A stretch of DNA of 64,000 nt from Candidatus Woesearchaeota archaeon (GTDB lineage Archaea; Nanobdellota; Nanobdellia; CAZCWL01; CAZQAZ01). Positions 15,318-60,083 of the stretch are shown piece after piece. The stretch spans positions 36,851 to 100,850 of the forward strand of contig CAZQAZ010000002.1 of assembly GCA_964591855.1 (NCBI GenBank). Direction: 5' to 3'. The position numbers and the translations under genes are program-made. Within the stretch, counting starts at the first letter, position 1; each line of letters begins with the position of its first letter. The notes beneath the pieces were generated by a model. The model did not search any database. It had not been told where the DNA came from and was given only the letters and a program-made list of their open reading frames with translations.

Positions 15318-16859
15318 ATGACCAATGAAGAGCAAAGAGAGTTAGCTATAAAAGAGATAATAGATAATTTAGATAGTGTTAACTCTAAAGAAGAATTAGA
15401 AAAGTTGAAGTATAAGGTTTGTAGGAAGTACAAGGTTCCATTGATGCTCAATGCAGATATTCTATCCAGGATCAAAAACCCGTCAGATAAAGTAAAGGAG
15501 CTGCTGACCACGAAACCAATTAGAAGTTTATCTGGTGTTAGTGTCGTTGCTGTGATGACAAAACCATTCCCATGTCCCCATGGTAAATGTGTGATGTGTC
15601 CACAAGGTAAGAATGCCCCGCAAAGTTATACTGGAAAAGAACCTGCCACAATGAGAGCCATTAGTGCTAATTATGATCCCACACTCCAAGTTAAGAATAG
15701 GATAAGACAACTTGAATTAACTGGGCATCCAACTGATAAAATAGAAGTAATTGTTATGGGAGGAACTTTTACTTCTATGCCAAGAGATTACACCACGAAT
15801 TTTGTTAAGGGCATCTTTGATGGTCTGAATGGAGTAAAGGCTAGAACTCTTGAAGAAGCACACATGCTAAATGAGGAATCTAAGCACAGATGCGTTGGAT
15901 TAACTATAGAGACAAGACCTGATTATTGCTTTGAGGACGACATAAGGTATATCCTTAGCCTTGGTGCTACAAGAGTAGAGATTGGTGTGCAGTCTACTTT
16001 TGATGATGTGCTTAAGAAGATAAAGAGAGGACATACTGTGCAGGATTCCATCAAAGCAACACAACTACTGAAGGACTCTTCTTATAAAATAAACTATCAC
16101 ATGATGACGGGTCTCCCAGGATCTAACCCAAAGAAAGACCTTGAGTCATTTAAAAAAATATTTCAAGATCAAAGATTCAAGCCAGATATGATTAAGATAT
16201 ATCCTACTATGGTCATAAAAGGTACGGAGTTGTATGATATGTGGAAGAGGGGAGAATACGAGCCTTACTCTCAAGAAACTCTGATTAACTTATTGGCTGA
16301 CATAAAAAGAATAACTCCAAGATGGGTTAGAATAATGAGGATACAAAGAGACATTCCTCTCAATCAGGCTGAAGCAGGAGTTTTAAAGGGAAATATAAGA
16401 GAAATCTTAAAGACAAAAGTGAAGTGTAATTGTATAAGGTGTAGAGAAGTAGGACATAAGGATCCAAAGTTAGTTAAGGGTCTAAAGCCAAAACTTTTCG
16501 TGGAGGAGTATAGAGCATCCAACTCGAAAGAGTTTTTCATATCCTTCGAAAGCGAAGATCAAGAAGTACTCTTCGGCTTCATAAGGTTAAGAATACCTTA
16601 CAAGCCATTCATGGAGCAAATAACTAAGACTACTGGCTTAATTAGAGAGCTTCACGTGTATGGTAAAGAAGCAAGTTTAGGAAAGGAAGGGTATGTGCAA
16701 CACAAGGGCCTTGGTAGAAAACTTCTAGAGGAAGCGGAGTCCATAGCCAAGTCTGAAGGTATGGACAAGATGGTGATAATAAGTGGTGTTGGAGTTAGGC
16801 CATACTTTAAAAAGTTTGGCTATAGAAGAGATGGTCCATACATGTCAAAATCATTATAA
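15318..16859 (+). CDS. elp3: Elp3-like radical SAM/GNAT tRNA uridine-34 modification enzyme
   Basis: CPHGKCVMC (CX4CX2C) radical-SAM cluster, a C-terminal GNAT domain, and the FPCPHGKC motif typical of Elp3. Confidence 0.9.
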   Translation: MTNEEQRELAIKEIIDNLDSVNSKEELEKLKYKVCRKYKVPLMLNADILSRIKNPSDKVKELLTTKPIRSLSGVSVVAVMTKPFPCPHGKCVMCPQGKNAPQSYTGKEPATMRAISANYDPTLQVKNRIRQLELTGHPTDKIEVIVMGGTFTSMPRDYTTNFVKGIFDGLNGVKARTLEEAHMLNEESKHRCVGLTIETRPDYCFEDDIRYILSLGATRVEIGVQSTFDDVLKKIKRGHTVQDSIKATQLLKDSSYKINYHMMTGLPGSNPKKDLESFKKIFQDQRFKPDMIKIYPTMVIKGTELYDMWKRGEYEPYSQETLINLLADIKRITPRWVRIMRIQRDIPLNQAEAGVLKGNIREILKTKVKCNCIRCREVGHKDPKLVKGLKPKLFVEEYRASNSKEFFISFESEDQEVLFGFIRLRIPYKPFMEQITKTTGLIRELHVYGKEASLGKEGYVQHKGLGRKLLEEAESIAKSEGMDKMVIISGVGVRPYFKKFGYRRDGPYMSKSL

Positions 16860-27537: not shown

Positions 27538-28611
27538 ATGCGTTTGAAGTTTTTGAAAATACTTAACTCTTGTGGAGAGTTTACTTTACAAGTTGATATA
27601 GATGGGTTTAAATCCTCTGTACCTAGAGGAACTTCTAGGAGTAAATACGAAGCCAAACCTTCAAGTTTAAGAGATCTTAGTTCGAAAGCAAGATGTATAC
27701 AAAGAAAACTTAATTCTCACTCGTTCTCGGACTTAAGGTCTATACTCGAGTTTGAAAAGTATACTGAGAAGTTTGGTTCGGAGATCTGTTTGGGCGTAAC
27801 TTATTCTTTGTTGAGAATGTTGGCACATAAGAAAGGAGTTGGGGTTTGGAGATTGTTTACAAATAAGAAGGAAGCTCCAAGAGTGATATCAAAGATTATG
27901 GGTGGAGGAAAGCACTTCATTACTGGGCCAAAGATCCAGGAGTTCCTCTTCTCTTCTAATTCTAAAGGTTTGGTTGGGAATATAACAGGGAATGTTAAAG
28001 TGTACGATGAAGTAAAAGAAAAGCTTGCAAAGAGTAAGAGGATATTGGGTGTGGACTTGGAAGGTGGGCTAGTTCCAAACATGAGTAGCGAGGAAAGCCT
28101 TAACCTCCTAAGAAGATACAGACACAATGGTAAGGTTGGTGTGGACATTGCTGGAGTCAATCTTGTTAGGGGAAAGTCTAAGAACTTTGCTTACGTAGAC
28201 TGGTTAACCTCAAGATACAAACTGGATTATGTGGAAGATCCATTTGACGAGGACGAATTTAAACTGCATGCAAAGTTATGGGCCAAGCATAGCAAGGTCT
28301 TAATAGTTGGAGACGATTTATACGCAACAAACCCATCAAGATTATTAGAAGGCATAAAAGAAAACTCTACGAATGCGTGTATTGTTAAGCCAAATCAAGC
28401 AGGAAGTTTAAGCAAAACAATGGACTTTGTCAACCTGGCAAAGAAATATAAATTAGTAACTGTTATCTCCCACAGGTCTAGGGAGACAAATGACAGCATA
28501 CTTGCTGACTTAGCCGTTGGTTTGGGGGCTGATATGATAAAAGTAAGTATTATAAATGGAGAAAGGGTTTCAAAATTGAATAGATTGATTGAGATAATGG
28601 AGGGAGAGTAA
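27538..28611 (+). CDS. eno: Enolase, compact/divergent form
   Basis: Conserved catalytic motifs DLEGGLVP, VEDPFDEDEF, IVGDDL, KPNQAG and ISHRSRETND. Only 357 aa, with a shortened and divergent N-terminal domain. Conserved rpoK-eno-rps2 context. Confidence 0.75.
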   Translation: MRLKFLKILNSCGEFTLQVDIDGFKSSVPRGTSRSKYEAKPSSLRDLSSKARCIQRKLNSHSFSDLRSILEFEKYTEKFGSEICLGVTYSLLRMLAHKKGVGVWRLFTNKKEAPRVISKIMGGGKHFITGPKIQEFLFSSNSKGLVGNITGNVKVYDEVKEKLAKSKRILGVDLEGGLVPNMSSEESLNLLRRYRHNGKVGVDIAGVNLVRGKSKNFAYVDWLTSRYKLDYVEDPFDEDEFKLHAKLWAKHSKVLIVGDDLYATNPSRLLEGIKENSTNACIVKPNQAGSLSKTMDFVNLAKKYKLVTVISHRSRETNDSILADLAVGLGADMIKVSIINGERVSKLNRLIEIMEGE

Positions 28612-30056: not shown

Positions 30057-30302
30057 ATGGAGACAATTATATGTAACACAAAGCTTAAACAGCTTAGAGG
30101 TCTTATGTTTAGATTCAAAAAAGTTAGAGCTGTCTTCCCGGCAATACCTGTCCACACTTGGTTTGTCTTCTACCCAATAAAGTTAAAGTGGCTAGACAAA
30201 AACAAGAATTTAATCAAGGAAGAAATAGCAAAACCCTTCTCACTTAGGGTCTTCCACCCCCCAAAGAACGCATCCCATCTAATCGAGGAACCTCCTAATT
30301 AA
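30057..30302 (+). CDS. DUF192/COG1430-like small protein
   Basis: LRGLMFR and WFVFYPIKLKWLD motifs resemble DUF192. The match is weak. Confidence 0.4.
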   Translation: METIICNTKLKQLRGLMFRFKKVRAVFPAIPVHTWFVFYPIKLKWLDKNKNLIKEEIAKPFSLRVFHPPKNASHLIEEPPN

Positions 30303-30664
30303 CTGCAGGTAGATGCTGAGCAGTTTAGTCGACAAGATATTCCCGAAGGGTCCGTTAGTCTACATATTGTTAACTCTTTACATGTCATAGATTTACCACC
30401 GACAGTTACGGGCTCTGTACAGAAACTTATACCTACAGGTATACAATCACATTCCCCATCTTCATCATCATCTACTAATGATGTTATTAGCTCTTGGTCT
30501 TTGGCGCATACATTCTTACAGTGTGCTATTGCTTGAGCTGAAGATATACCTGCACCACCACCTTTTTGTGCGGATGTGAAGAATAGAAGTATAGCAGCAA
30601 GAGTAATAACTGCTAACGCCAAGACAATTATAAACTCAATTGGAATGGATACCCCTTTTTTCAA
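30299..30664 (-). CDS. Class III signal peptide (type IV pilin-like) cysteine-rich protein, paralog 1
   Basis: Pilin-like N-terminus KKG/VSIPIEFIIVLALAVITLAAILLFF followed by HCKNVCAKDQE...CKELTICRLTDPSGISC. The track ORF extends to 30742 (TTG) and overlaps the upstream gene, so start is placed at the in-frame TTG giving MKKGV. Confidence 0.6.
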   Translation of the reverse strand: MKKGVSIPIEFIIVLALAVITLAAILLFFTSAQKGGGAGISSAQAIAHCKNVCAKDQELITSLVDDDEDGECDCIPVGISFCTEPVTVGGKSMTCKELTICRLTDPSGISCRLNCSASTCS

Positions 30665-30705
30665 GTTACCACCTAAGTCTAAGAGACATTTGTTCTTTTT
30701 AAGCT

Positions 30706-31107
30706 TTAAGTTTGGCCAGACTGTCCACAAGAGGCCACACAAGTTCCTCCAAAGTTGTCTACTAGTTTACATGTTGTAATTTCATAGCATGGCGTCTTTT
30801 TGCCTTCAATGTAATAATGTCCATTACAGAACTTTGATGCAAGATTACCATACTCCTTACTACTATCTATACATCCTTCGTATCTAAGCTCCCCAGAATC
30901 TAATCTTTCGGTAAGATTTATCCCAGCAGGTAGAGCAGATCTGTCTTGCATACATAAGTTCAAACAAAAGGAAGTAGCCTTAATTGAAGAAGTTCCACTT
31001 TCTCCTTTAGCAGATTTTGAGATAAGCATAACGGCTGCTGCTAAGACCATTAGACCTATCCCAACTGCTACTAGAAAATTCATCATAGCACTTCCTTTCT
31101 TTGGCAT
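30706..31107 (-). CDS. Class III signal peptide (type IV pilin-like) cysteine-rich protein, paralog 2
   Basis: MPKKG/SAMMNFLVAVGIGLMVLAAAV followed by FCLNLCMQDRS...CYEITTCKLVDNFGGTC. Confidence 0.7.
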   Translation of the reverse strand: MPKKGSAMMNFLVAVGIGLMVLAAAVMLISKSAKGESGTSSIKATSFCLNLCMQDRSALPAGINLTERLDSGELRYEGCIDSSKEYGNLASKFCNGHYYIEGKKTPCYEITTCKLVDNFGGTCVASCGQSGQT

Positions 31108-31145
31108 AATTATCTAAAGAATGCTGAGTATATAAACTTTACAAT

Positions 31146-31706
31146 CTAACAGTTCACCCATGAGGCTAAGCAGCCCTCTTTTGGCAATTTACAGCATGCG
31201 CCAATGTTTAAGCATTTTTGTTTGTTAAGGATAGTGCTGTGGTAGTCTGGTCCTATGTAATTCAATTTACATAGTCTCTCCATTTTTCTTGTACCAACTT
31301 CACATGTATCACCTATACAACTAGGTATTCCACCATCTAATACACATGCAATTTCACATGCTTTTTTCATATCAACAGTTAGATTCGTAATCTCACAAGT
31401 CTCACCAAATGAATCCTTGATTACACAGCTTGTTAGGTCAAAGCATGTTACAGTTTCTCCACCTATTCTAAACTTAAGTTTCGCGAACTCTGATTCTTGA
31501 GACGTAACGCATACACCTTCTATGCTAACACTATCTAACCTCGAGTCGTTAAGACATGCAGCTTCACACATCTTTATAGCAGTGGTCCTTGAGACAGTTC
31601 CTATCCCAAGCAGTCCTACATTCCTAAGCATGATAAGAGCGACCAATATAACAGCTACTATTATAACAATTGTTATAAGCATGGTGAATTGTATTCCTCT
31701 TTTCAT
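31146..31706 (-). CDS. Class III signal peptide (type IV pilin-like) cysteine-rich protein, paralog 3 (two Cys modules)
   Basis: MKRG/IQFTMLITIVIIVAV. Module A is KMCEAACLNDS...TCFDLTSCVIKDSFGETC. Module B is KACEIACVLDGG...CCKLPKEGCLASWVNC. The track start 31715 (MVFM) lies 9 nt upstream. Confidence 0.7.
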   Translation of the reverse strand: MKRGIQFTMLITIVIIVAVILVALIMLRNVGLLGIGTVSRTTAIKMCEAACLNDSRLDSVSIEGVCVTSQESEFAKLKFRIGGETVTCFDLTSCVIKDSFGETCEITNLTVDMKKACEIACVLDGGIPSCIGDTCEVGTRKMERLCKLNYIGPDYHSTILNKQKCLNIGACCKLPKEGCLASWVNC

Positions 31707-32230
31707 GAACACCAACTCTTACTAAAGTATTTCCCATCTCTTATACACTTCTTCCCACCAACCGTCTCGCAGTCTGTTTTCAAAACAGTCCAAAGCTCAC
31801 ATAGCTTTGGGAACCTATCAGGTTCTTGGTCTGAGAGAAGACCATAACTTCCACCGTCTATCTCGCACGCCTTCTGACATGTTTTAATCTTGCTGAATGT
31901 AATGGGAGATACAGCACAGATGCCATACTCTGTTGACATCCTACACTCTGTTAAGTTGTAACAATTAACTTTTCCCATACCTTCCACATTTAGGTATGTG
32001 TGAATAAAAGAATAGTCATCACTATATGCACATGAGCCTTCTAGGTTAACGGCTCCATGTATAGAGTCCTCTGAACATAGATCATCGCATTTTGATATCG
32101 CACTAAGTTGTGTTATTGTTGCTGCACTTGGCTTCGTAAGGGATCCAGATAAATAAAGACCAACGAGAAGAACCATAACCCCCACGGCGACTGCTAGCAA
32201 AAAGCTAAATCCTGCTTGCAAAGCTTTCAT
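31703..32230 (-). CDS. Class III signal peptide (type IV pilin-like) cysteine-rich protein, paralog 4
   Basis: MKALQAG/FSFLLAVAVGVMVLLV followed by KCDDLCSEDS...NCYNLTECRMSTEYGIC...CQKACEIDGG. Confidence 0.7.
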   Translation of the reverse strand: MKALQAGFSFLLAVAVGVMVLLVGLYLSGSLTKPSAATITQLSAISKCDDLCSEDSIHGAVNLEGSCAYSDDYSFIHTYLNVEGMGKVNCYNLTECRMSTEYGICAVSPITFSKIKTCQKACEIDGGSYGLLSDQEPDRFPKLCELWTVLKTDCETVGGKKCIRDGKYFSKSWCS

Positions 32231-32257: not shown

Positions 32258-33913
32258 TTAGTTTTTCCTTACAACAACTGCTACTCCACTATCAAAGTCC
32301 ATTATCTCCTTTGGACTAAGTAAAGCATCTCCATTACCAATGTACTCTCCTTTCTCGTCTACTATTGCAACTTGATCCCCAGCTAGGAAGCTGCCTACGT
32401 CCTTAACAAACTTACAAAATACACTCTTCCCTTTCTTAACAAAGGGTACAGCCTCCTCATCTATTTTAACGTAGTAATCTTTGGCCAACTTGAATATGTC
32501 CCTCATACCTTCGTCCCCGAATACTATCCTTCCATCACCAGGTCTTATGGTTGCGTACACTCCCCCTTTCTTTAAGATTCTCCTTATCCTTCCAGTCTTT
32601 CTGCTCTTTTCAATCACGGCTCCTTTCAAGACTTTCTTACCTATGCCTTTCCCAAATTGAAAGTCCACAAGCTTTTCGATTCTTTTCATGTCGCTGAATT
32701 CTTTCTTGGAGAATTTGAATACATTTTCTCCTCCAAGCATGTTGAATGGAAACACTTCTTTGAAAGAAGGATTCACTTTAGAACCTACTCTCTCTTTGTA
32801 AAGTCTCAAGGCAACCTTAACATCAGGTCTTAGCTTTGTTTCCATTCCCAAGAAATGAGGTGCCTTTTTCTTCTTTAAACTTACAAACTCCTCCATGAAC
32901 TTACCATACTTTTTAAGTAAATGAATGTATGCAGAGTAAATGTCTGCATGGAGCCTTGCCCTATTTACTAGAAACTCAAAGAATCTCCCACCTTTTATAG
33001 CAACCCTTATCTTCCTTATCTCATCCAATGTAACATTCAGATTGTGTCTTGCAATTAATTCTTCTGTCATCTCAGATGGTGATCTTCCTTTACAGACATC
33101 GCATGTACATGGCAATTCATGCATTTCCTTAAGCTCATTAATGTCTATAATCTTTTCAATAGTCATGTATGCGCCCCTGCTTGCATACAAAGCATATGCA
33201 GCTGAATCAAATATGTCAACACCCATTGCTACAAGAAGAGCGAATATCTGTGGATTGCCTGCACCAAAAGCATGAATTGGTATGTTCTGTGGCAAGCTCA
33301 TTTTGCAAGTCATTATTATGTCTACAAGGTCTTTGAAGTTGTAGTTTTCCATAAGGGGAACTATCCCACCTATTGCTGCTATGTCCCCATATACCTTAGA
33401 ACAAGCTTTCTTTCTTAGGTCTAAGAACTTGCCTCCTTGAATAGGCTGACACAGTAACCTATCTTCTTTCATTTCCTTAGCAGCTTCTATCCTTTTAAAG
33501 GTCTCTTCCAACTTTCTTTTGGCTGTAGTGTAATCATCGTCAGGGAATGTGAATACGTCTAAAGGAGTTATTATATCAGATCTTATCTTCTTTTGAAATT
33601 CAAGGGTTTCTTCATTTGTTATGCGTGCATCTCCAATAGAATACATTTGGAATGTTCCAGAATCCGTATATATTGGCTTATTCCACCTGAAGAACTTATG
33701 TAGTCCTTTCTTTTCTATCTCTTTTCTTGATTTGGAGCTCTTGATGATGTAAGAGTTAGTGATTATCAAGTCAAAGTCCTTCAAGTCTTTGATTGGGACT
33801 GTCATCTTGTTGGGGTTTACAACTACGGCAATAGTAGGTGTAGTTATCTTTTTGCCTCTTATGTTCAGCTCTCCAACTCTTGCTAATCCATCCTTAGCTT
33901 TAATCTGAAACAT
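32258..33913 (-). CDS. tgtA: Archaeosine tRNA-guanine transglycosylase (ArcTGT) with C-terminal PUA domain
   Basis: Catalytic YTDSGTFQ and PLDVF motifs. Zinc site CTCDVCKG. C-terminal PUA domain (AIVDEKGEYIGNG). Confidence 0.85.
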   Translation of the reverse strand: MFQIKAKDGLARVGELNIRGKKITTPTIAVVVNPNKMTVPIKDLKDFDLIITNSYIIKSSKSRKEIEKKGLHKFFRWNKPIYTDSGTFQMYSIGDARITNEETLEFQKKIRSDIITPLDVFTFPDDDYTTAKRKLEETFKRIEAAKEMKEDRLLCQPIQGGKFLDLRKKACSKVYGDIAAIGGIVPLMENYNFKDLVDIIMTCKMSLPQNIPIHAFGAGNPQIFALLVAMGVDIFDSAAYALYASRGAYMTIEKIIDINELKEMHELPCTCDVCKGRSPSEMTEELIARHNLNVTLDEIRKIRVAIKGGRFFEFLVNRARLHADIYSAYIHLLKKYGKFMEEFVSLKKKKAPHFLGMETKLRPDVKVALRLYKERVGSKVNPSFKEVFPFNMLGGENVFKFSKKEFSDMKRIEKLVDFQFGKGIGKKVLKGAVIEKSRKTGRIRRILKKGGVYATIRPGDGRIVFGDEGMRDIFKLAKDYYVKIDEEAVPFVKKGKSVFCKFVKDVGSFLAGDQVAIVDEKGEYIGNGDALLSPKEIMDFDSGVAVVVRKN

Positions 33914-33934
33914 AAAAATAAAGATTATACATAG

Positions 33935-33944
33935 TTTTATAAAT
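33935..33944. promoter_or_regulatory. Near-palindromic TATA box (TTTTATAAAT) shared by divergent tgtA and the radical-SAM gene
   Basis: Centred at about 33939.5, which is the midpoint between the two divergent start codons (33913 and 33965), 22-31 nt from each. Confidence 0.5.
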
Positions 33945-33964
33945 GCTTCTAGTGTAGTGCTTTT

Positions 33965-35251
33965 ATGGCAACGATAATACTCTCTTCAGGTAAGTGTAGA
34001 TGGGGAAAGTGTGTATTCTGTGGATGGGGTAAGTTAGTTGCAGATAGGGATGAGAATAGAGTTAAGCGTGACTTCCTTAGGAAGCTTTCTAACATTAAAG
34101 GCGAAGATACACTCTCCATATTTGCTTCTGGATCTTTTTTGGACGATTTACAATTCTCCCCAGAACTGAGAAAGTGGATTGTAGAGAAATTAAAGGAGAA
34201 AGGCTTTAAGAACCTAACTATAGAATCTAGGCCTGAGTTCATAACCAAAGAGAAACTTGAAGAGTTTAAGGGATTAAACCTCACAGTTGCTATTGGGTTA
34301 GAAGTTGCAGATGATGAGGTTCTTAAGAAGTTAAAGAAAGGGATAACCCTAAAAGACTTTGAGAGAGCAGCAAAAATAATACACGATTCTGGAGCCAAGC
34401 TTAGGGTTTACTTGCTTGTAAATCCCCCATTTGTGGATGATCCAAAAGAGTCTTTTAGGAAATCTGTTGAGTACGCTAAAAAGTTTGCGGATTCAATAGT
34501 CGCTATAAATTGCTATCCTCACTCTAAGTCAGAGTTGTTTGACATGTGGGTAAGGGGTGAGTGGAGACCTTTAGACGAGGAGGAGTTTAAAGAAGTGACG
34601 AAGGGTTATGATGTGGAGCTAGACTTCAGCAATTATAATTTCATCCCGAAGTTTCCTAAAGATAAACAAGAGAGGATAGTAGGTGTCTCTAAGGATACTT
34701 TACTTCACCCATATTATGAAGTTTGGCAGGATTATTTTCAGAGATTTTACAAGGTTCCAAAGGGTAAGAGATTTGCCCTTTTCTTACCATGTTCTTACAT
34801 TAAGCCTTACAGAAGATCCCCCACACACAGAGCTATCCTGAGAAAGCTACTAAAGCTTCCAACATACAAACAAATACATCAGATTATGATCTCATCACCT
34901 GGAGTTATACCAAGGGAGTTTGAGAACTACTATCCATTTAACTCATATGAGTGGAACGAGAAAGACGAGACAGAAGAGATAAAGAAACTTTACATAGACG
35001 TTAATAAAGAAAGGATTAAGAAGTATTTGCGAAGGCACAAATATGAGAAAGTATTCTCATATTTGAAGCCAGACTCAGAATCTTATAAGGCTCTTAAAGA
35101 AGCATGTGATGAGCTTGGGATAAACCTAATAAATCTTGTGGACGAGGAGAAGTACTTAGAACTTAAAGATAGAATCAAGGCAAGAATTTTAACACATGAA
35201 AGTTTGTTGGAATCGATGTGTAATAAGCTCTTGGAAGAAACGAAGAGTTAA
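33965..35251 (+). CDS. Elp3-like radical SAM protein (CX4CX2C), candidate archaeosine-pathway RaSEA-like enzyme
   Basis: N-terminal SSGKCRWGKCVFCGWGK parallels the Elp3 CPHGKCVMC motif. Divergently adjacent to tgtA. Pathway assignment is inference. Confidence 0.5.
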   Translation: MATIILSSGKCRWGKCVFCGWGKLVADRDENRVKRDFLRKLSNIKGEDTLSIFASGSFLDDLQFSPELRKWIVEKLKEKGFKNLTIESRPEFITKEKLEEFKGLNLTVAIGLEVADDEVLKKLKKGITLKDFERAAKIIHDSGAKLRVYLLVNPPFVDDPKESFRKSVEYAKKFADSIVAINCYPHSKSELFDMWVRGEWRPLDEEEFKEVTKGYDVELDFSNYNFIPKFPKDKQERIVGVSKDTLLHPYYEVWQDYFQRFYKVPKGKRFALFLPCSYIKPYRRSPTHRAILRKLLKLPTYKQIHQIMISSPGVIPREFENYYPFNSYEWNEKDETEEIKKLYIDVNKERIKKYLRRHKYEKVFSYLKPDSESYKALKEACDELGINLINLVDEEKYLELKDRIKARILTHESLLESMCNKLLEETKS

Positions 35252-35259
35252 AATGAAAG

Positions 35260-38200
35260 TTAACACTGTAGCCATGAAGCTATGCAGTTGTATTCTGGGA
35301 GCTTACAGCAGTAGCCGCTTGCCTTACACTTCTCTAGGTTGTCTTGATTTGTTTGGAAGGTTGGCCCTATCTTGTTAAGCTCACAAACTGTAGGGGTTGG
35401 ACTTTCACCCTCTTCGAAGTTCCACACGTCACTTCCACAGCTATTCAAGCTCCCACAAGTGACAGGCTCTCCACCATCTTTCAAACAAGCCTCCACACAA
35501 GCTTTTCCAAAATCCGTTGAATCCCTGCTTATGTAACAATCACCCAAACTGCAGGTTAGCACTTGATCACAATATACAGTTGTTCCTTCGACATTGAAAC
35601 TTAAGCTTGCAAAGTCTGAACTATTAAAGTAACACACCCCATTGATGTTAACAAACTCTTTGTTTGTGTCATTCATACAAGCTTCCTCACACATCCTCTG
35701 AATCTCAGGATGTGTGGATATTATCTTCTCCACATTTGTATGTTTGATTAATGTGTTACAATCGTACACGTTATTGGATCCAAGATCGTTAGGGAGTATA
35801 TCACCTTTTGTATCCAGTAGACACACATTTCCTTCCATCTTGTTATTGTTGAAAGTCACAGGAGTATCAAACACAAACCCATATACATTGTTCACGAAGT
35901 TGTTACTGTCAAACACACCACTGCATTCGCTACATAGCACACCATAGTAATTAGAGTAGAATGTATTACCTACCACGTTTACATTTCCACCTATAGCACT
36001 TATGCCAGAGTCTGAGTTCGAGAATGAAGATGATTTGATATTTCCAACACCAGAGACTCTGACATAATTTAACCCAGTTATATCGGAGTCTTCGATTGTT
36101 ATATTACCATAAGATTCAATCTTAAAGTCCTTATCTGCATAATGGATTTTAACCCCCTTCAGCGTGAGGTTTCCATAGTTCACCAAACTACATGGAGATG
36201 TACAGTTGATGTACAAGTTAACATTCTCTAAAGTAAGATTTCCATGCACAGTTGTATTCTTAAGGAGCACAACACCTAAGTTCTTAACATTACAGTTGTC
36301 GGATTTCTCAACTATCCAATCTTTGTACGTTGAAGGATAGCACCTATTCTCTTCGAGAACAGCAATAATCTTTTTTGGAGAATCAAATCTAACTTTAAGT
36401 GTGGTGTAGTTATAATGTCTCCAGTAATTTAAGACCTGAGCACCTGTTACGTTGACTGTGTAATCTCCCACATCAATTAAGTTAAAGTCCTTGTCGAGAT
36501 AATACGCCTGTCCACACCATGTTTTAACTGGCGAAGAAATGTATCCTGCATCACATTCTAAAATCCTTGTGGTTGGATAGGGTCTTATCTTATTTCCATT
36601 TGTGTCTTTAATTTCTATCTCTATTATGCTTGTTGATGCAATTAAACCTTTAGTATTGCTATCAGGCAAGAGTGTGTTTTTCGAACTCAAGCTATTAAAG
36701 AAAGCTTCGATATCACTCCCAGATATGTCTGAGTTGACGAGCATTATTAAGAATGAACCTCCTTTTAAAGTGTTCCCTTCTATGTCAACATTGTTTTCCG
36801 AAGTAAGTCTTATAGGATTGTTATAGTACTTGTAGTCCTTTACGGTTACAGAGTTGTGTTTAATGGAACCTGAGGAGTTGGATACAGAGATCCATCCAAC
36901 ATTCATATCATTTGATGTTAAGTTTATTGTAGAGTTTGTTATTGCTAAACCAATTGATTGATCTACATCATTGTTGCTAAACTCCACCGTTGAGTTGTAA
37001 GAGTAGAGAGGATAGACTACACCAACTATGTTGCTCTCATTAATCTTAGCTTTTGAGTTAAGCACATAAAATCCATAGTATGTTTTGTAACTTCTACCGC
37101 CAGAGAATGTGAAGTTGGTGTTTGATATGTTCACACCCTTTTCATCGGATATGTAAACACCGCCATACATTCTCTTATATGGACCCGACATGAATCTATT
37201 CTTATAGAATGTGACATTCTTGTTATTTATGAGGTAGACCTCAAATATGTAACTTGATGTATTTGTGTGGAAGGTGTTATTTGTTATGTTGATGTATGAG
37301 TTTGTTGAATAGATCCCCCTCGCTCCGAAAAATGTGGAGTTGGAGACAGTTATGTTAGAGCCTCTTGCGAAGAGTCCATAATAACTCTTGTCCACCACAT
37401 TTTTAAGTGTCAAGTTAGACTCAACCGAAACAACACTTACTCCCTTGTTGTTGAAGAAAGCGTCCTTAATTTCCCCACTTGAGTTGAAGTAGTAAAGAAG
37501 CTTATTGACCTTACCAAAATCTCCAAATGATCCATAAAAGTCTTGCTTGGTGTTGAGATTGTATAGAAGTATCTTAACATTGTCTGCTTTGTTACCCCTT
37601 CCATATACTTTGTTGGTGTTGTGGATTCCTAACTTATAGTCGTATGAGAACGAGTTACCGAAGAATAATGCTTCTCCGTAATTGTAGACGAAGGAATATG
37701 CATGATCCCATGTGTTACTAATAAACCTTGTCCCTACAGCATAGTTTTTAACAGGGATGTATGCGTTTGTGAATACATTCTTTAATAGAACAGTGGGCTC
37801 CACTATGTTTAAAGCCCTCCTTCCAAAGAAAGTGTTTCCAACGAGTTTAATCTTCTCGCCCACATCAAAGTCTTTGTCTAGTTCTATGTTATTCCCTTTT
37901 AGAACGATATGATTACTAAGTGACAGTTGGCTGGTTTTGATACTGTTTCCTCTTATCACAGCCTTACTTGTTCTCACATCTAACTCTGAGTTGTGAAGTA
38001 TTGATTTTTGGATGTTCAATGAGGATCCTTCTAAAGCAGTTATGTATGCCTTACTAACAAACGAGCTGGCTATTAGTATTTGACCACCCTGGTTAGCTTG
38101 TATGGTCTTTGAGTTTCCATTAAGGTAAGAGTTTATTAAAACAAGCGCTCCACCGTCCTTCACCACAATAGGATACTTTAAGTCTATGTCTTTACCATAA

Positions 38201-39273
38201 CAAACCTCCACGTCTTTAATCTCCCAAGTTCTATCTTCTGGTATTCTACAATTGGATATGTCGTACACTCTATATTCGTTGTTTGTGTAGTTTGCATCGC
38301 CTTGTGTGGAGTTTACCACAAGTCTCAATGGAAGAATAGAACCCATATTGAAAGCATCGTATTTTGTGTTGAGCATTATAGTGCCTGCAGTCCCAACTGG
38401 GAGTGTTCCTTTTGTATACTCCAGAAGCTTTTGGTTTCTTTTGTTGAACAAGGTTAAGTTATAGTCCTCAGCGTCTACGAGTCCAAGATTATAAACTGAA
38501 GTCTGAAGAGTTCCTTCTAGAGGAGTGTAGTATAACACGTATGGCTTAATTTCTGCTTGGGAACCCATATCAAATTTAATTGATATGGTATTCGAATTAA
38601 AGAGATGTGAGAAGTCATAAGGTTCAGAATCATTTGAGGCACCATTCTCTATAATAGCTTCGTATGTTCCATCGGCTCCAAAGTCTACTCTTATTTTCCC
38701 AGAGTAGCTTGTTGTCAAGTTTGCGAAGTAGATGACAGCTCCTTGTGGTAAAGTAATATGTACTACGTCCCCTGGATTAATAGTGTTTCCCTCATTAAAA
38801 GTGTTGGTTACGTTGATCTCATTAAGAGTGAAGTTAAACTCAGCACCAAGTATTGTTTGGTCTGGAAGATAAACGAGTGAACAGTCTTGTGGACACGTTT
38901 CTTCTGTTTCATTCCCATTACATATTCCATCTCCACAGTATGCCCCAACACATGTTCTCTTGGATACGACACAAGTACGTCCAGAACTATCGGTCAATGT
39001 ACATTTAACGTAGTTATAACAGTCCTTCGAACAGAAGTTTGGAGCCAGACCTTGGCTACAGAACCCCCTATCAGATGTAACGGTTCTGACGATATTATTG
39101 TCCTCTTCACATAACTCCCTACATTCTTTCTCAAGGCTAACTATACTTTGAACTTGCTCCGTTCCACCTTTAGATCTGATAACCAAGAAGTATACTGCTG
39201 CAAGAACGGCAACTGCTATTATTACAACAGCTAGAATCTCTACGCTGCTAGCCCTCTTGTAAGCTTTGTACAT
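35260..39273 (-). CDS. Giant (1337 aa) class III signal peptide surface protein/adhesin candidate: pilin-like N-terminus, Cys module A, long N-x-S/T-rich beta-helix-like repeat region, C-terminal Cys modules A and B
   Basis: N-terminus MYKAYKRA/SSVEILAVVIIAVAVLAAV. Then EKECRELCEEDNN...CSQGLAPNFCS. Central region is rich in N, S, T and Y with dozens of NxS/T sequons (NITNNTFHTNTSSY...). C-terminus MCEEACMNDTN...YCDQVLTCSLGDC and KACVEACLKDGG...CCKLPEYNCIASWLQC. Confidence 0.75.
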   Translation of the reverse strand: MYKAYKRASSVEILAVVIIAVAVLAAVYFLVIRSKGGTEQVQSIVSLEKECRELCEEDNNIVRTVTSDRGFCSQGLAPNFCSKDCYNYVKCTLTDSSGRTCVVSKRTCVGAYCGDGICNGNETEETCPQDCSLVYLPDQTILGAEFNFTLNEINVTNTFNEGNTINPGDVVHITLPQGAVIYFANLTTSYSGKIRVDFGADGTYEAIIENGASNDSEPYDFSHLFNSNTISIKFDMGSQAEIKPYVLYYTPLEGTLQTSVYNLGLVDAEDYNLTLFNKRNQKLLEYTKGTLPVGTAGTIMLNTKYDAFNMGSILPLRLVVNSTQGDANYTNNEYRVYDISNCRIPEDRTWEIKDVEVCYGKDIDLKYPIVVKDGGALVLINSYLNGNSKTIQANQGGQILIASSFVSKAYITALEGSSLNIQKSILHNSELDVRTSKAVIRGNSIKTSQLSLSNHIVLKGNNIELDKDFDVGEKIKLVGNTFFGRRALNIVEPTVLLKNVFTNAYIPVKNYAVGTRFISNTWDHAYSFVYNYGEALFFGNSFSYDYKLGIHNTNKVYGRGNKADNVKILLYNLNTKQDFYGSFGDFGKVNKLLYYFNSSGEIKDAFFNNKGVSVVSVESNLTLKNVVDKSYYGLFARGSNITVSNSTFFGARGIYSTNSYINITNNTFHTNTSSYIFEVYLINNKNVTFYKNRFMSGPYKRMYGGVYISDEKGVNISNTNFTFSGGRSYKTYYGFYVLNSKAKINESNIVGVVYPLYSYNSTVEFSNNDVDQSIGLAITNSTINLTSNDMNVGWISVSNSSGSIKHNSVTVKDYKYYNNPIRLTSENNVDIEGNTLKGGSFLIMLVNSDISGSDIEAFFNSLSSKNTLLPDSNTKGLIASTSIIEIEIKDTNGNKIRPYPTTRILECDAGYISSPVKTWCGQAYYLDKDFNLIDVGDYTVNVTGAQVLNYWRHYNYTTLKVRFDSPKKIIAVLEENRCYPSTYKDWIVEKSDNCNVKNLGVVLLKNTTVHGNLTLENVNLYINCTSPCSLVNYGNLTLKGVKIHYADKDFKIESYGNITIEDSDITGLNYVRVSGVGNIKSSSFSNSDSGISAIGGNVNVVGNTFYSNYYGVLCSECSGVFDSNNFVNNVYGFVFDTPVTFNNNKMEGNVCLLDTKGDILPNDLGSNNVYDCNTLIKHTNVEKIISTHPEIQRMCEEACMNDTNKEFVNINGVCYFNSSDFASLSFNVEGTTVYCDQVLTCSLGDCYISRDSTDFGKACVEACLKDGGEPVTCGSLNSCGSDVWNFEEGESPTPTVCELNKIGPTFQTNQDNLEKCKASGYCCKLPEYNCIASWLQC

Positions 39274-39315: not shown

Positions 39316-39666
39316 CTAGCAGCTATTAGAGGTCACAACACAAGTTCTCCCATCTTCAAATGTTAGAACACATTTAGTTATGTCGTAACATCTCAAGGTT
39401 CTGCCTGCTATCTTAAATGAACCGCTACAGAAGTTTGGAGCTAGACCCTGTCCACAAGACCCATCTTCATATATCTCTCCACTAATAAGAAGCTGGTTGT
39501 CCTTAGCACAGGCAGCTTCACATGAGGACTTAGCATCGGATAGGGTTATAGACTCCCCAGATTGTGCTTTCCCTTTGAAAACTAGGTAAAGTCCAGCTAC
39601 CGCCACCATAGCACTTAATATGATAACGACTATCAAGTTTATCGAACTTTGTCCTCTCATCCACAT
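39316..39666 (-). CDS. Class III signal peptide (type IV pilin-like) cysteine-rich protein, paralog 6
   Basis: MWMRG/QSSINLIVVIILSAMVAVAG followed by SSCEAACAKDNQ...CGQGLAPNFCSG...CYDITKCVLTFEDGRTCVV. Closely matches the N-module of the giant protein. Confidence 0.7.
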   Translation of the reverse strand: MWMRGQSSINLIVVIILSAMVAVAGLYLVFKGKAQSGESITLSDAKSSCEAACAKDNQLLISGEIYEDGSCGQGLAPNFCSGSFKIAGRTLRCYDITKCVLTFEDGRTCVVTSNSC

Positions 39667-40076
39667 CTCACTCCTATAGCTTCTAATCTATCAACGACAC
39701 CAAGCTGTTCGGCATAATTACATATCTCTTCTTCATCGTAGCTTGAGAGCTCACCAAAGTAACATATCCCCCAAGGTGTTTCAGCTGAACATTGGACTAT
39801 GTCATAACAGTGTTTGGTCTTGCCACTTAACTTGAACTCAAGCTTTCCAAAATCTGACTTTGGATTTGTATAGCATTGTCCATCTATGCTTGTTATGTTT
39901 TTGTATTGGTCAAGCAGACAAAAATCGCTGCATTTTGATTTTAAAGATGCTCTTGAGAGGGAGCCGAGATTGGAGATGTAACCTTTATTGAATATGAAGA
40001 TGACTATTAGTATAACTGAGAGAGCAAGTAAAGCTGCTATGACATAGTTTATTCCCAGTGAAACACCTTTTTTCAT
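39657..40076 (-). CDS. Class III signal peptide (type IV pilin-like) cysteine-rich protein, paralog 7
   Basis: MKKG/VSLGINYVIAALLALSVILIV followed by KCSDFCLLDQ...HCYDIVQCSAETPWGIC. Confidence 0.7.
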   Translation of the reverse strand: MKKGVSLGINYVIAALLALSVILIVIFIFNKGYISNLGSLSRASLKSKCSDFCLLDQYKNITSIDGQCYTNPKSDFGKLEFKLSGKTKHCYDIVQCSAETPWGICYFGELSSYDEEEICNYAEQLGVVDRLEAIGVRCG

Positions 40077-53329: not shown

Positions 53330-54313
53330 TTGTGTTCAATTATAAGGATTATGATAGTGTTGGGTATAGAGTCAACTGCACATACATTTGGTGTAGGAAT
53401 AATAGATTCAGAAGAGAGAAAAGTTCTATCAAATGTAAGAGACACTTTTAAACCTCCTAAAGGAGGTTTTGTTCCAAGAGATTTGTCAGAACATCATGCT
53501 AAAGTTTGTTATGATGTGACACAAAAGGCATTGGATGAGGCTAAGCTTTCTATAAAAGATATTGACAGGATAGCCTATTCTCGTGGGCCAGGAATAGGAC
53601 AAGCTCTTTTGATAGGTTCAACTTTTGCCAAGACTCTTCACATAAGACATAAGATACCTGTAGTTGGAGTCAATCACTGTATAGCTCACTTGGAGATAGG
53701 GAGATTCTTAACGGAGTGTAAGGATCCAGTTATGCTTTACGTTTCGGGAGGAAACACCCAAGTCATATCTTACGAAGGTAAAAGATACAGAGTCTTTGGA
53801 GAGACTATGGATATAGCTCTAGGGAACTTGATAGATGTTTTTGGTAGAGAAGCAGGCCTTCCCACCCCAGCAGGTCCTATTGTTGAAAAGCTTGCAAAGA
53901 ACGGGAAATATGTAGAATTGCCTTATGTGGTCAAGGGTATGGATGTGTCACTAGCAGGAATGTTAACTAACCTTAAAGATAAACTTAAGAGAGGATACAA
54001 AGTTGAAGATCTTGCATATTCGTTGCAGGAAACAGCGTTTGCTATGTTGGTTGAAGTAACAGAGAGAGCTATGGCTCATACCGAGAAGAAGGAAATGTTG
54101 CTTACTGGTGGGGTGGCTGCAAATAAAAGACTCCAGGAAATGAGTAAGATTATGTGCGAAGAAAGAGGTGCACGTTTTTACACCATACCTTTACAGTATG
54201 CAGGAGACAATGGTGCAATGATAGCCGTTGTTGGAGCCTTAGCAGAACCTGATAACAACTTTGACATAGACCCAAACTGGCGTACAGACCAAGTTAAGAT
54301 AACTTGGCGTTAG
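53330..54313 (+). CDS. kae1: KEOPS subunit Kae1 (tRNA t6A37 threonylcarbamoyltransferase)
   Basis: GIESTAHTFGVGI and HH metal-binding motifs of the Kae1/TsaD family. The true start is possibly the internal Met at 53351. Confidence 0.9.
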   Translation: MCSIIRIMIVLGIESTAHTFGVGIIDSEERKVLSNVRDTFKPPKGGFVPRDLSEHHAKVCYDVTQKALDEAKLSIKDIDRIAYSRGPGIGQALLIGSTFAKTLHIRHKIPVVGVNHCIAHLEIGRFLTECKDPVMLYVSGGNTQVISYEGKRYRVFGETMDIALGNLIDVFGREAGLPTPAGPIVEKLAKNGKYVELPYVVKGMDVSLAGMLTNLKDKLKRGYKVEDLAYSLQETAFAMLVEVTERAMAHTEKKEMLLTGGVAANKRLQEMSKIMCEERGARFYTIPLQYAGDNGAMIAVVGALAEPDNNFDIDPNWRTDQVKITWR

Positions 54314-54498: not shown

Positions 54499-55320
54499 AT
54501 GCCAGCGAATGTTAATGTGGCATTTGTAGAGGCTGAGAAAGAATACGAGGAAGCTAGAACTAATGAGGAGAAGCTTAAAGCCTTAAAGAAGATGCTTTCT
54601 GTGGCGCCAAAGCACAAAGGTACAGAAAAAATGCTAGCCGAAATAAAAGCAAAGATATCAAAGCTCCAGAAAATAATCCAAAGAGAGAAGCAATTAAAGA
54701 GGAAAGGTAAACCCACTTCAATTAGGAAGCAAGGTGCAGCCACAGTATGTCTTTTCTCTTTACCGAATACAGGAAAGTCTTATCTTATGAATATGTTAAC
54801 AGGATCGAACATTCCTTCGACTTTAAAACCATTTGAAACTGTTGAACCGAAGGTTGGAATGATAGACTATGATGGCGTTAAGATTCAGCTAGTAGAACTT
54901 CCATCAGTATTTGAAGGCTACCACAAAAAGTATCCAAATTACATGAGTATAGCAAGAGTCTCTGATCTCATTGCAATACTTGGTGATCCAAAGATTCCAA
55001 CTAAGGAGTTGGAACAAGCAGGAGTGAAAGTGCCTACAGTTCTTATAACTCCAGAAAATGCTAAAGATTTAATATGGAAAAAGCTGGATCTGATAAGGGT
55101 GTATACTAAAGAACCGGGGAAGAGTGTTACTAAAGAGGCTATGGGTCTTAAAAGGGGCTCGAGGGTAATAGACGCAGCTGAGAGAATACATAAAGACTTT
55201 GTCAAGAAGTTTAAGTATGCGAGAATATGGGGCAAGAGTGCTTCGTTCCCAGGGCAGACAGTTGGACCTAATCATGTACTTGAGGATGGTGATGTTATTG
55301 AAATCCACACCAAAAAATAA
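54499..55320 (+). CDS. DRG/Obg-family-like protein with TGS domain and degenerate GTPase motifs
   Basis: N-terminal DRG helix and C-terminal TGS domain (RVIDAAERIHKDFVKKFKYARIWGKS) are conserved. G1 reads SLPNTGKS (no first Gly), G3 reads ELPS instead of DxxG, and NKxD is absent. 273 aa versus about 365. Confidence 0.6.
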   Translation: MPANVNVAFVEAEKEYEEARTNEEKLKALKKMLSVAPKHKGTEKMLAEIKAKISKLQKIIQREKQLKRKGKPTSIRKQGAATVCLFSLPNTGKSYLMNMLTGSNIPSTLKPFETVEPKVGMIDYDGVKIQLVELPSVFEGYHKKYPNYMSIARVSDLIAILGDPKIPTKELEQAGVKVPTVLITPENAKDLIWKKLDLIRVYTKEPGKSVTKEAMGLKRGSRVIDAAERIHKDFVKKFKYARIWGKSASFPGQTVGPNHVLEDGDVIEIHTKK

Positions 55321-55921
55321 AGAGAAAGTAGCAAGGGAGAAAATAGCCCAAGCTGCGGAGGCTATTATCTATAAAGAAGGGGATAAAATAATCAAATATA
55401 GGATCAAGAAAAAGTATAGAATCCAAAAGATAGATGAAGAACTAAGGAGAAGAAGAACAAAGCTCGAGTCTAAAATATTACTCCGTGCAAGAAGATATGG
55501 AGTGAATGTTCCAGCAGTTCTAGAGGAAAATAAATATGAAATAATTATGGAATACATAGACGGCCAACAACTCAAGAATGTTTTGAATAAGAAAAACTAC
55601 AAATCCTTAATGAAGAAGGTAGCAGAACAGGTTTCTTTGTTGCATGGAGCAGGTATAGTTCATGGAGACTTAACAACATCTAATATGATCTTAAGGAATA
55701 ATGATGTGTTCTTAATAGACTTTGGGCTTGCACAGAATTCTAATAAAATAGAGGATAGGGCAGTAGACTTGTATCTACTCAAGCAAGCCTTAGAGTCTAA
55801 GCATCATGAGATTTCAGATGCTTGCTTCGAGACTTTTATGAAATACTATAAGATAGAGGACAAACAACAAGTTGTTGATAGGTTGAAGGACATTGAGAAA
55901 AGAAGAAGGTACAAGTCTTAG
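55199..55921 (+). CDS. bud32: KEOPS kinase Bud32
   Basis: IAQAAEAIIYKEG...IIMEYIDG...HGDLTTSNMIL RIO-like kinase motifs. True start is probably an internal Met around 55286-55292. Confidence 0.75.
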   Translation: MSRSLSMREYGARVLRSQGRQLDLIMYLRMVMLLKSTPKNKEKVAREKIAQAAEAIIYKEGDKIIKYRIKKKYRIQKIDEELRRRRTKLESKILLRARRYGVNVPAVLEENKYEIIMEYIDGQQLKNVLNKKNYKSLMKKVAEQVSLLHGAGIVHGDLTTSNMILRNNDVFLIDFGLAQNSNKIEDRAVDLYLLKQALESKHHEISDACFETFMKYYKIEDKQQVVDRLKDIEKRRRYKS

Positions 55922-59150: not shown

Positions 59151-60083
59151 TCACTTAACTTTTAGTATTCTCCAAGGATAATCTTCCTTTGCTACGAGTG
59201 CAACTCTCGATTCTTCTTTCTCATCTATTACTTTCCATCCTAGTAAGCTTGCTAGTTTATCAGCCATCTCCATAATCTCTGTGTGCTCCATCTGGTTCTT
59301 TGGGGATAGTCTATACTTAGCATTACCAACACTAACGAATGATTTTACCTCAACAAAGTGAGGGTTAGCCTTTGATATGAGTTTAGCATAGCCTTCAAGG
59401 TCTGTATCATTGTATCCTTTAACAACTGTTATTCTTATGACTTTTCTTGTATCCAGACTTGGTAGAAGTTCAAGTGTCTTGTTTAGGTTCTCCCAGTTTT
59501 GTTTTATTATTGGTTGGCATAGCGAGTTGTAGATTTTTTCATTTGGTGCTGATAGAGATATGTAAAGTTGTGTTGGCATGACTTTTAAGTTCTTGAGAGC
59601 ATTTGGTAAAGTACCATTTGTTACAAGGAAAGAAGTCATATCTCTCTTGTGTATTTCTTCTAGGAATTCGCTCATGTAAGGGTAAAGCATAGGCTCCCCA
59701 GCAAGAGATATGGCAAAATGTTTTGGATTCCATGCTTCTTCGAACACTTCCTTTTTGACTTTCGGGTTGCCCTTGAAACCAACAATTAATTTCCTTTGAG
59801 CTTCGATACATTTGTCTACGATGTCTTCTGGTTTGTCGACTATTTTTTCCTTAGACATGTACTCAGCAGGTCTCCAGCAGTATAAGCAGTTTTGAGTACA
59901 TGCAGATACTATTGGAGTCATCTGTACACATCTATGGGATTGGATACCATAGAATTTTTGTTTGTAGCAGAAACCTTCTCCTACCATGGCTTTCTTAAGC
60001 CATAGACATGTCTTTACACAAGAGTGCTCTCCACAGAAGGCATAGCCCTGCTTCTTTAAAAGATTTCTGAAGGTCTCATCCAT
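59151..60083 (-). CDS. taw1: Radical SAM tRNA 4-demethylwyosine synthase Taw1 (TYW1)
   Basis: YKQKFYGIQSHRCVQMTP and CTQNCLYC (CX3CX2C) motifs typical of TYW1. Confidence 0.8.
   Translation of the reverse strand: MDETFRNLLKKQGYAFCGEHSCVKTCLWLKKAMVGEGFCYKQKFYGIQSHRCVQMTPIVSACTQNCLYCWRPAEYMSKEKIVDKPEDIVDKCIEAQRKLIVGFKGNPKVKKEVFEEAWNPKHFAISLAGEPMLYPYMSEFLEEIHKRDMTSFLVTNGTLPNALKNLKVMPTQLYISLSAPNEKIYNSLCQPIIKQNWENLNKTLELLPSLDTRKVIRITVVKGYNDTDLEGYAKLISKANPHFVEVKSFVSVGNAKYRLSPKNQMEHTEIMEMADKLASLLGWKVIDEKEESRVALVAKEDYPWRILKVK

Follow-up and report, generated by a model that had tools for sequence, protein, structure and literature searches.

A RaSEA-type radical SAM core fused to the ArcS catalytic domain: a candidate single-chain archaeosine synthase in DPANN and other archaea

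In the formation of archaeosine (G+), ArcTGT puts the 7-deazaguanine preQ0 at position 15 of tRNA, ArcS transfers lysine to it to give preQ0-Lys, which blocks the reverse ArcTGT reaction, and the radical S-adenosylmethionine (SAM) enzyme RaSEA, bound to ArcS, turns preQ0-Lys into G+ with SAM (PMC11298593). In Thermococcus kodakarensis, ArcS is the alpha subunit, a lysine transferase, and RaSEA is the beta subunit, a radical SAM lyase (PMC11298593, summarising Yokogawa et al. 2019). ArcS activity depends on neither tRNA sequence nor the L-shaped fold, and extends even to the preQ0 nucleoside (PMC11298593, 2024). The catalytic C1 domain of ArcS is DUF5591, and its signature is PC-X3-KPY-X2-S-X2-H (PMC10516641, PMC5699537). 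Here we describe a gene of a Candidatus Woesearchaeota archaeon in which both catalytic modules occur in one reading frame. It lies in a stretch of 64,000 nucleotides, referred to below as the window (GCA_964591855.1, contig CAZQAZ010000002.1, positions 36,851 to 100,850 of the forward strand), at window positions 33965..35251 on the + strand. An earlier reading of the letters of this DNA, the original prediction, proposed that the gene encodes a radical SAM protein that is either a RaSEA-like archaeosine enzyme or a second Elp3-like paralog.

Two catalytic cores in one polypeptide

The open reading frame (ORF) is complete, starts at the first ATG after a stop, and encodes 428 amino acids (ORF list, Pfam and NCBIfam). 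Pfam places a Radical_SAM domain at residues 8-155 (1.6e-13) and DUF5591 (PF17884) at residues 254-395 (7.4e-20, 71.8 bits against a cutoff of 26). By its predicted domain content, the gene is a RaSEA-type radical SAM core fused to an ArcS C1 domain.

The N-terminal domain (residues 1-228, 33965..34648, + strand) is best matched by the NCBIfam RaSEA model (TIGR01210), with 132.2 bits over residues 3-202 (E = 2e-38, profile positions 17-229 of 313). Scores for other radical SAM families were far lower, at 49.9 bits for Elp3 (TIGR01211) and 35 bits for MnmL/YtqA, and no unrelated subfamily came out on top, so the RaSEA-like half of the original prediction is borne out. The N-terminus, MATIILSSGKCRWGKCVFCGWGK, contains the predicted [4Fe-4S] cluster-binding motif C11-X4-C16-X2-C19 (CRWGKCVFC, 33995..34021, + strand). 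Across an alignment of 66 homologs, conservation of the three cysteines is 90% or higher, and the motif was found in 83 of 86 homologous loci, so they are no chance match, and the reading frame first noticed by its N-terminal CX4CX2C motif is real.

The original prediction covered only the N-terminal half of the protein. The remaining ~200 residues are the ArcS catalytic domain (C1 at residues ~229-400, 34649..35164, + strand), to which the NCBIfam ArcS alpha models match at residues 229-392 and 229-419, over the C1 region; the match to NF040592 spans profile positions 256-413 of 575. The ArcS signature is complete, as PCSYIKPYRRSPTH at residues 275-288 (34787..34828, + strand). The C-domain is also matched, by sequence and by structure, by AF0587 (PDB 2q07), the sole solved DUF5591 structure, in an alignment that spans both the ArcS motif and a second conserved stretch, SSPxVxPREFExxYP. 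The earlier statement that the gene is adjacent to ArcTGT rather than to ArcS therefore does not hold, since ArcS is not missing from the locus: its C1 domain is the C-terminal half of the same polypeptide. AlphaFold returns a single compact body with a predicted local distance difference test score (pLDDT) of 95.9 and a predicted template modelling score (pTM) of 0.90, and the two domains are therefore predicted to pack as one body.

Canonical RaSEA proteins served as a reference for the N-terminal domain. When this domain alone was searched against 1.84 billion cluster representatives, there were 23 matches at E <= 1e-30, mainly fusion representatives and fragments, followed by a long series of weaker matches to proteins of 290-390 amino acids with 30-38% identity. 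Seven tested stand-alone proteins exceed the RaSEA equivalog cutoff (309-357 bits); the fusion N-domain is 30-33% identical to them, and C11, C16 and C19 are invariant in the alignment. Two canonical features are absent from the fusion, namely an N-terminal extension of ~15-50 amino acids and a C-terminal four-cysteine module (RGxHNCxxCD...CxC..W). Where RaSEA has the latter, the fusion has a conserved linker (F..PKFP...HP..EVWQDY) and then C1, and outside the cluster motif its sole conserved cysteine is C276. No Pfam match to TGT, TGT_C2 or PUA was found in the 428 residues. An end-to-end fusion of complete subunits is ruled out because the TGT-like N-terminal (Nt), C2 and PUA domains of ArcS and these RaSEA modules are missing. 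The fusion is about half the size of the canonical pair combined, an estimate that takes RaSEA as about 300-350 amino acids and ArcS from NCBIfam models of 515 and 575 positions. Judged by which modules were recognized, it is a minimal two-core enzyme.

The other half of the original prediction, a second Elp3-like paralog acting on tRNA U34, deserves consideration because archaeal Elp3 is the best PDB sequence match of the fusion (E = 2e-14), and because the Elp3 encoded in the window shares both the CX4CX2C spacing and 26% identity over the radical SAM core. We nevertheless regard this identity as next to impossible. In BLASTP the fusion is closer to canonical RaSEA (34% identity, E = 3e-31) than to the window Elp3 (26%, E = 3e-17), its TIGR01211 score of 50 bits compares with a cutoff of 350, and its C-terminal half is ArcS C1. 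No GNAT, Radical_SAM_C or ELP3_N domain was matched by Pfam, and the lack of GNAT, already noted in the original prediction, was confirmed with NCBIfam. Moreover, a complete Elp3 gene is already present at 15318-16859, with 702 bits on TIGR01211, the domains ELP3_N, Radical_SAM, Radical_SAM_C and GNAT, and CPHGKCVMC at residues 86-94. The likeness in cysteine spacing is correct as an observation, but it is not specific to Elp3: spacing in canonical RaSEA varies between CX4CX2C, CX7CX2C and CX9CX2C, so that CX4CX2C is a trait of the RaSEA/Elp3 clade and no mark of Elp3.

Distribution of the fusion and its linkage to tgtA

The fused architecture is widespread. The best 120 homologs in a collection of 5.8 billion proteins are all 400-485 amino acids long with both Pfam domains, and are 46-61% identical to the woesearchaeal protein, except for one identical sequence (P0001, 100%). 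Their database names vary among 'DUF5591 domain-containing protein', 'radical SAM protein' and 'hypothetical protein', with 'archaeosine synthase' used inconsistently. In a GTDB scan with one genome per species, at least 555 loci encode relatives, and the best 80, which were examined, are near-full-length fusions. About 25 of these 80 are from Altiarchaeota; others are from Woese-, Aenigmat-, Micr-, Nano-, Nanohalo-, Parv- and Iainarchaeota, or from metagenome-assembled genomes (MAGs) labelled Thermodiscus, Desulfurococcales, Thermoproteales, Thermofilaceae, Methanomethylicia, Culexmicrobium and, in one case, Asgardarchaeum. The closest GTDB locus among the matches listed is in a Woesearchaeota MAG (L007, 60% identity).

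Conservation extends over both domains in the 66-sequence alignment. Invariant or nearly invariant positions of the N-domain are C11, C16, C19, SGS 55-57, ESRPE 87-91, GLE 111-113, K125, Y149, N182 and W200, and those of the C-domain are WQD 254-256, P275, C276, K280, P281, Y282, S285, H288, S310, G313, P316, PF 324-325, Y328, W330, E332 and E335. C276, K280, P281, Y282 and S285 are strictly invariant, and the C-X3-KPY-X2-S core is found in all loci but one that is truncated (L084, Ser to Gly). The signature histidine is replaced by tryptophan (S-K/R-T-W) in a subset of fusions (L010, L015, L026, L046, L047, L073, L077 and L086) that includes TACK- and Asgard-labelled ones, so this residue of PCX3KPYX2SX2H is not universally required. 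In a few other fusions the proline of the motif is Q, T or H.

Three proteins with other arrangements came up in the search with the N-domain alone. One of 579 amino acids (P0260) passes the RaSEA cutoff (236 bits) and ends in a GNAT domain, an Elp3-like architecture on a RaSEA core. Another (P0134, 635 amino acids) has an insert of ~250 residues between its radical SAM and DUF5591 domains, and in a third (P0136, 544 amino acids) a RaSEA-like core is C-terminal, after an unassigned N-terminal region of 316 residues.

The gene is divergently paired with tgtA, as the original prediction stated. This neighbour (32258..33913, - strand) encodes 551 amino acids with Pfam TGT, TGT_C2 and PUA domains, scores 404.6 bits against a cutoff of 350 on TIGR00432, and aligns over its full length to Pyrococcus horikoshii ArcTGT (PDB 1iq8, E = 4e-109), retaining the motifs for catalysis and zinc binding, DSGxFQ, GGxVPL, DxFDSA and CxCxxC...H. 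On these sequence criteria it is a bona fide ArcTGT. We also considered whether it could be the Nt-C2-PUA half of a split ArcS, and ruled this out on the TgtA cutoff, the motifs and the end-to-end alignment.

Of the 80 GTDB loci, 62 extend 2 kb or more upstream of the fusion. In 17 of the 80, tgtA is found no more than 6 kb away, in every case upstream in divergent orientation, and in 8 the two genes are direct neighbours. The linked loci are labelled Woese-, Aenigmat-, Parv-, Nanohalo- or Nanoarchaeota or Nanobdellati, and none of the 17 is from Altiarchaeota or TACK. The linkage is recurrent, far above chance, and restricted to Nanobdellati-type DPANN. Adjacency as a family-wide rule was rejected, as it is absent in L001, L002, L003 and L006 and in 63 of the 80 GTDB loci. 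Besides the tgtA pairing there is another recurrent context, seen in two distant relatives, where the fusion directly follows the conserved archaeal string of L21e, RpoF (Rpb4) and DUF655 genes, plus KsgA or Ldh (L001 5949-9245, L006 3988-7311).

Proposed function and alternative readings

We hypothesize that the fusion probably works as a minimal, one-chain archaeosine synthase, taking preQ0-tRNA to G+-tRNA via a lysine adduct. It holds exactly the two catalytic cores of the known pathway, and the same two-step chemistry in one chain is the simplest reading of this. ArcTGT from the divergent neighbour would exchange G15 of tRNA for preQ0; A14-G15 is present in each of the three tRNA genes of the window. 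The ArcS-C1 domain of the fusion would then add an amine donor to the preQ0 nitrile, presumably the amino group of L-lysine, by analogy with formation of preQ0-Lys by T. kodakarensis ArcS. Finally, the RaSEA-type domain would use a [4Fe-4S] cluster, bound by C11, C16 and C19, and SAM to cleave the lysine moiety, leaving the formamidine of G+. From the described enzymes we infer what the substrates are, that the intermediate carries lysine, in which order the steps run and that position 15 of tRNA is the site of action. A C1-only module is plausible because ArcS needs no tRNA L-shape or sequence and acts on the preQ0 nucleoside (PMC11298593), and viral ArcS2 proteins, which are C1-only, indicate that C1 can work without Nt, C2 and PUA.

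Several observations weigh against this proposal. The fusion misses the RaSEA equivalog cutoff (132.2 of 212.15 bits) and those of ArcS (66.8 and 67 bits, against 440 for NF040592 and 600 for NF053620). With three ArcS domains (PUA, C2 and TGT-like) absent, along with the four-cysteine module of RaSEA, the fusion would have to recognise tRNA in some other way, perhaps via the surfaces of C1 and the radical SAM domain alone, or by docking on ArcTGT. In Altiarchaeota and TACK loci, and in several further DPANN ones, tgtA is not a neighbour of the fusion gene. No genes for preQ0 synthesis were found in the window, although 64 kb is little of a whole genome: Pfam identified no stand-alone arcS, RaSEA, queC, queD, queE or queF-like gene among its ~60 ORFs, and tblastn with bacterial QueC, QueD and QueE gave no match to it. 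The same search of the 64 kb disclosed no separate ArcS-RaSEA pair; the presence of such a pair elsewhere in the genome would, according to the original prediction, refute its reading.

Furthermore, a part for the radical SAM half in making G+ does not follow of necessity, because two ArcS proteins are reported to make G+ without such a partner. Methanocaldococcus jannaschii ArcS is reported to use NH4+, Asn or Gln directly in vitro, and the C1-only ArcS2 of Vibrio phage nt-1 yields dG+ in Escherichia coli without RaSEA. The C1 domain of the fusion could likewise amidate preQ0 directly, with ammonia, glutamine or asparagine, and the radical SAM domain could carry out a different or additional 7-deazaguanine reaction; the product would then be other than plain G+, or a further-modified G+. 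The absence of the four-cysteine module and the N-terminal extension, together with the sub-cutoff score, is in keeping with such a change of role. Even so, RaSEA is by far the closest radical SAM family to the N-domain, its known partner is the very domain fused here, and the fusing of two complex-forming proteins is most simply read as the same two-step chemistry. We consider direct amidation unlikely.

A further alternative is that the substrate of the enzyme is not tRNA but DNA, or free 7-deazaguanine nucleosides or nucleotides; a DPANN cell that depends on a host might, for instance, recycle preQ0 or G+ nucleotides obtained from it. Resemblance to queuine lyase and the lack of RNA-binding domains in the fusion suggest this, but the RaSEA score (132 bits) is far above that for queuine lyase (37 bits), and the linkage is to a PUA-bearing ArcTGT and not to DpdA, with translation and housekeeping genes as the other neighbours. 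Nor is the family confined to host-dependent DPANN, as it also occurs in Altiarchaeota and Thermoproteota. The reported Km of ArcS for the nucleotide is also very high (433 uM). In our judgement a salvage or DNA-directed role is very unlikely.

The archaeosine synthase proposal can be extended, more doubtfully, to a broader one, in which archaeosine outside Euryarchaeota is made mainly by the fusion instead of the two-subunit ArcS-RaSEA, with the fusion docked on ArcTGT in one channelled assembly. The fusion would then have no RNA-binding domain of its own, the C2 and PUA domains of ArcTGT would hold the tRNA, and G15 would pass to preQ0, preQ0-Lys and G+ within that assembly. This would include TACK lineages usually described as lacking ArcS, and would make the interdomain interface predicted by AlphaFold a natural model of the still unsolved ArcS-RaSEA interface.

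The surrounding window and comparison with known systems

Between the two divergent genes is a spacer of 51 bp (33914..33964) with a palindromic TATA-like box, TTTATAAA, at 33936-33943. The distances from the box to the two ATGs are 22 and 21 nt, and the divergent spacers of related loci are likewise short and AT-rich. We suggest that the spacer is a putative shared bidirectional promoter for leaderless transcripts. An antisense ORF (33949-34398) that overlaps the start of the fusion gene is most likely spurious. The two closest relatives share the local gene order of the window, with enolase, S2, Memo, ..., the divergent tgtA and fusion genes, a methyltransferase, RNase J and GluRS.

Flanking the tgtA and fusion genes are six small ORFs (116-189 amino acids) and one of 1337 amino acids (30299-32230, 35260-39273 and 39316-40076, all on the - strand). 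The six small ORFs and both ends of the large one share a module in which a hydrophobic, pilin-like N-terminal segment precedes a cysteine-rich stretch; Pfam gave no match for the two ORFs that were scanned, including the 1337-residue one. These ORFs enlarge a region that holds only one or two small genes in the syntenic loci L004 and L005. The enolase homolog (27538-28611, + strand, 357 amino acids) matches only the C-terminal TIM-barrel of Pfam Enolase (residues 219-355); its N-terminal domain was undetected, and the L005 ortholog is likewise.

The window is otherwise an ordinary archaeal chromosome, with genes for L1, L10, L11, S2, S3Ae, FtsZ, proteasome, exosome, aIF2-gamma, aIF5B, Kae1, a Tyw1-like protein, NrdD and deoxyhypusine synthase. 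Its tRNA-modification genes and NrdD (15318-16859, 53330-54313, 55199-55921, 59151-60083 and 55923-57947) cover Elp3, Kae1, a RIO/Bud32-like kinase, a Tyw1-like radical SAM wyosine enzyme and NrdD. This gene content indicates that the organism is an anaerobe with a fairly full tRNA-modification gene set, and an oxygen-sensitive fusion enzyme fits an organism that carries the anaerobic NrdD.

Searches of plasmids and phages returned relatives that are C1-only or radical-SAM-only, and no fusion. Bacillus cereus group plasmids carry a stand-alone DUF5591 gene clustered with queC, queD and queE; in the B. mycoides plasmid NZ_CP071813.1 (L087, 104298-114948) the cluster also includes a carbamoyltransferase, a glycosyltransferase, a methyltransferase, a deacetylase and an ABC exporter, and its gene content suggests biosynthesis of a 7-deazapurine natural product. 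ORF75 of Methanobacterium virus PhiF1 (L090, 72368-72979) is a C1-only ArcS2-like protein, 47% identical to the fusion C-domain, that may be annotated too short, as the tblastn match begins upstream of the annotated start. Haladaptatus (L088) and Natrinema (L089) megaplasmids encode 'tRNA-guanine transglycosylase' proteins of 650-670 amino acids in which the C-terminal part matches DUF5591; the genes adjoin AAA or helicase genes, and may belong to DNA-modification (DpdA-ArcS2-like) systems.

Full-text literature searches found no description of a RaSEA-ArcS fusion, although a prior mention in the key 2010, 2012 and 2019 papers is possible. Yokogawa and colleagues reportedly found RaSEA through comparative genomics in 2019, and such a fusion could have been included. 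This is not a new kind of system, because the families of both halves and their chemistry are known; the fused, stripped-down architecture, however, passes no curated cutoff and has no consistent name. The fusion provides independent 'Rosetta stone' evidence for a partnership of ArcS and RaSEA that is biochemically established in only a few Euryarchaeota. If the proposed function is correct, the last archaeosine steps could be assigned to hundreds of DPANN, Altiarchaeota and some Thermoproteota genomes, and the statement that most Crenarchaeota lack ArcS may need revision. It would also define a minimal catalytic unit, in which nature dispenses with the four-cysteine module of RaSEA and with three ArcS domains (TGT-like, C2 and PUA), which fits the 2024 finding on the tRNA L-shape. 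Structures of the ArcS-RaSEA-tRNA complex are still needed, according to the authors of PMC11298593. A compact and confidently predicted single chain is an attractive target for crystallography or cryo-electron microscopy, also for the radical lyase mechanism. The fusion should be of use to specialists for genome annotation, as a structural target and as a minimal enzyme; it is not deeply surprising.

Of the described proteins, Elp3 (PDB 6iad and 5l7j, and the window protein at 15318-16859) has a related radical SAM core and the same CX4CX2C spacing, but it modifies U34 and has the ELP3_N, Radical_SAM_C and GNAT domains that the fusion lacks. Queuine lyase (PDB 6p78, from Clostridium spiroforme) serves salvage in bacteria and has no C1; the fusion scores far lower for it than for RaSEA. 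The viral ArcS2 proteins of Vibrio phage nt-1, Sulfolobus viruses STSV1/2 and Methanobacterium virus PhiF1 are stand-alone C1 domains, 33-47% identical to the fusion C-domain; unlike the fusion, they have no radical SAM partner and function in DNA modification with DpdA. AF0587 of Archaeoglobus fulgidus, the C-terminal half of a split ArcS, combines DUF5591 with PUA and has no radical SAM domain, and the fusion is its reverse, with radical SAM present and PUA absent. The closest counterpart is the ArcS-RaSEA system of T. kodakarensis and other Euryarchaeota, which has the same two catalytic modules and motifs, acting after the same enzyme, ArcTGT. There, however, the modules reside in two separate subunits known as a physical complex, whereas in DPANN, Altiarchaeota, some TACK lineages and one Asgard-labelled MAG they are joined in one chain, of 428 amino acids in the woesearchaeal protein.

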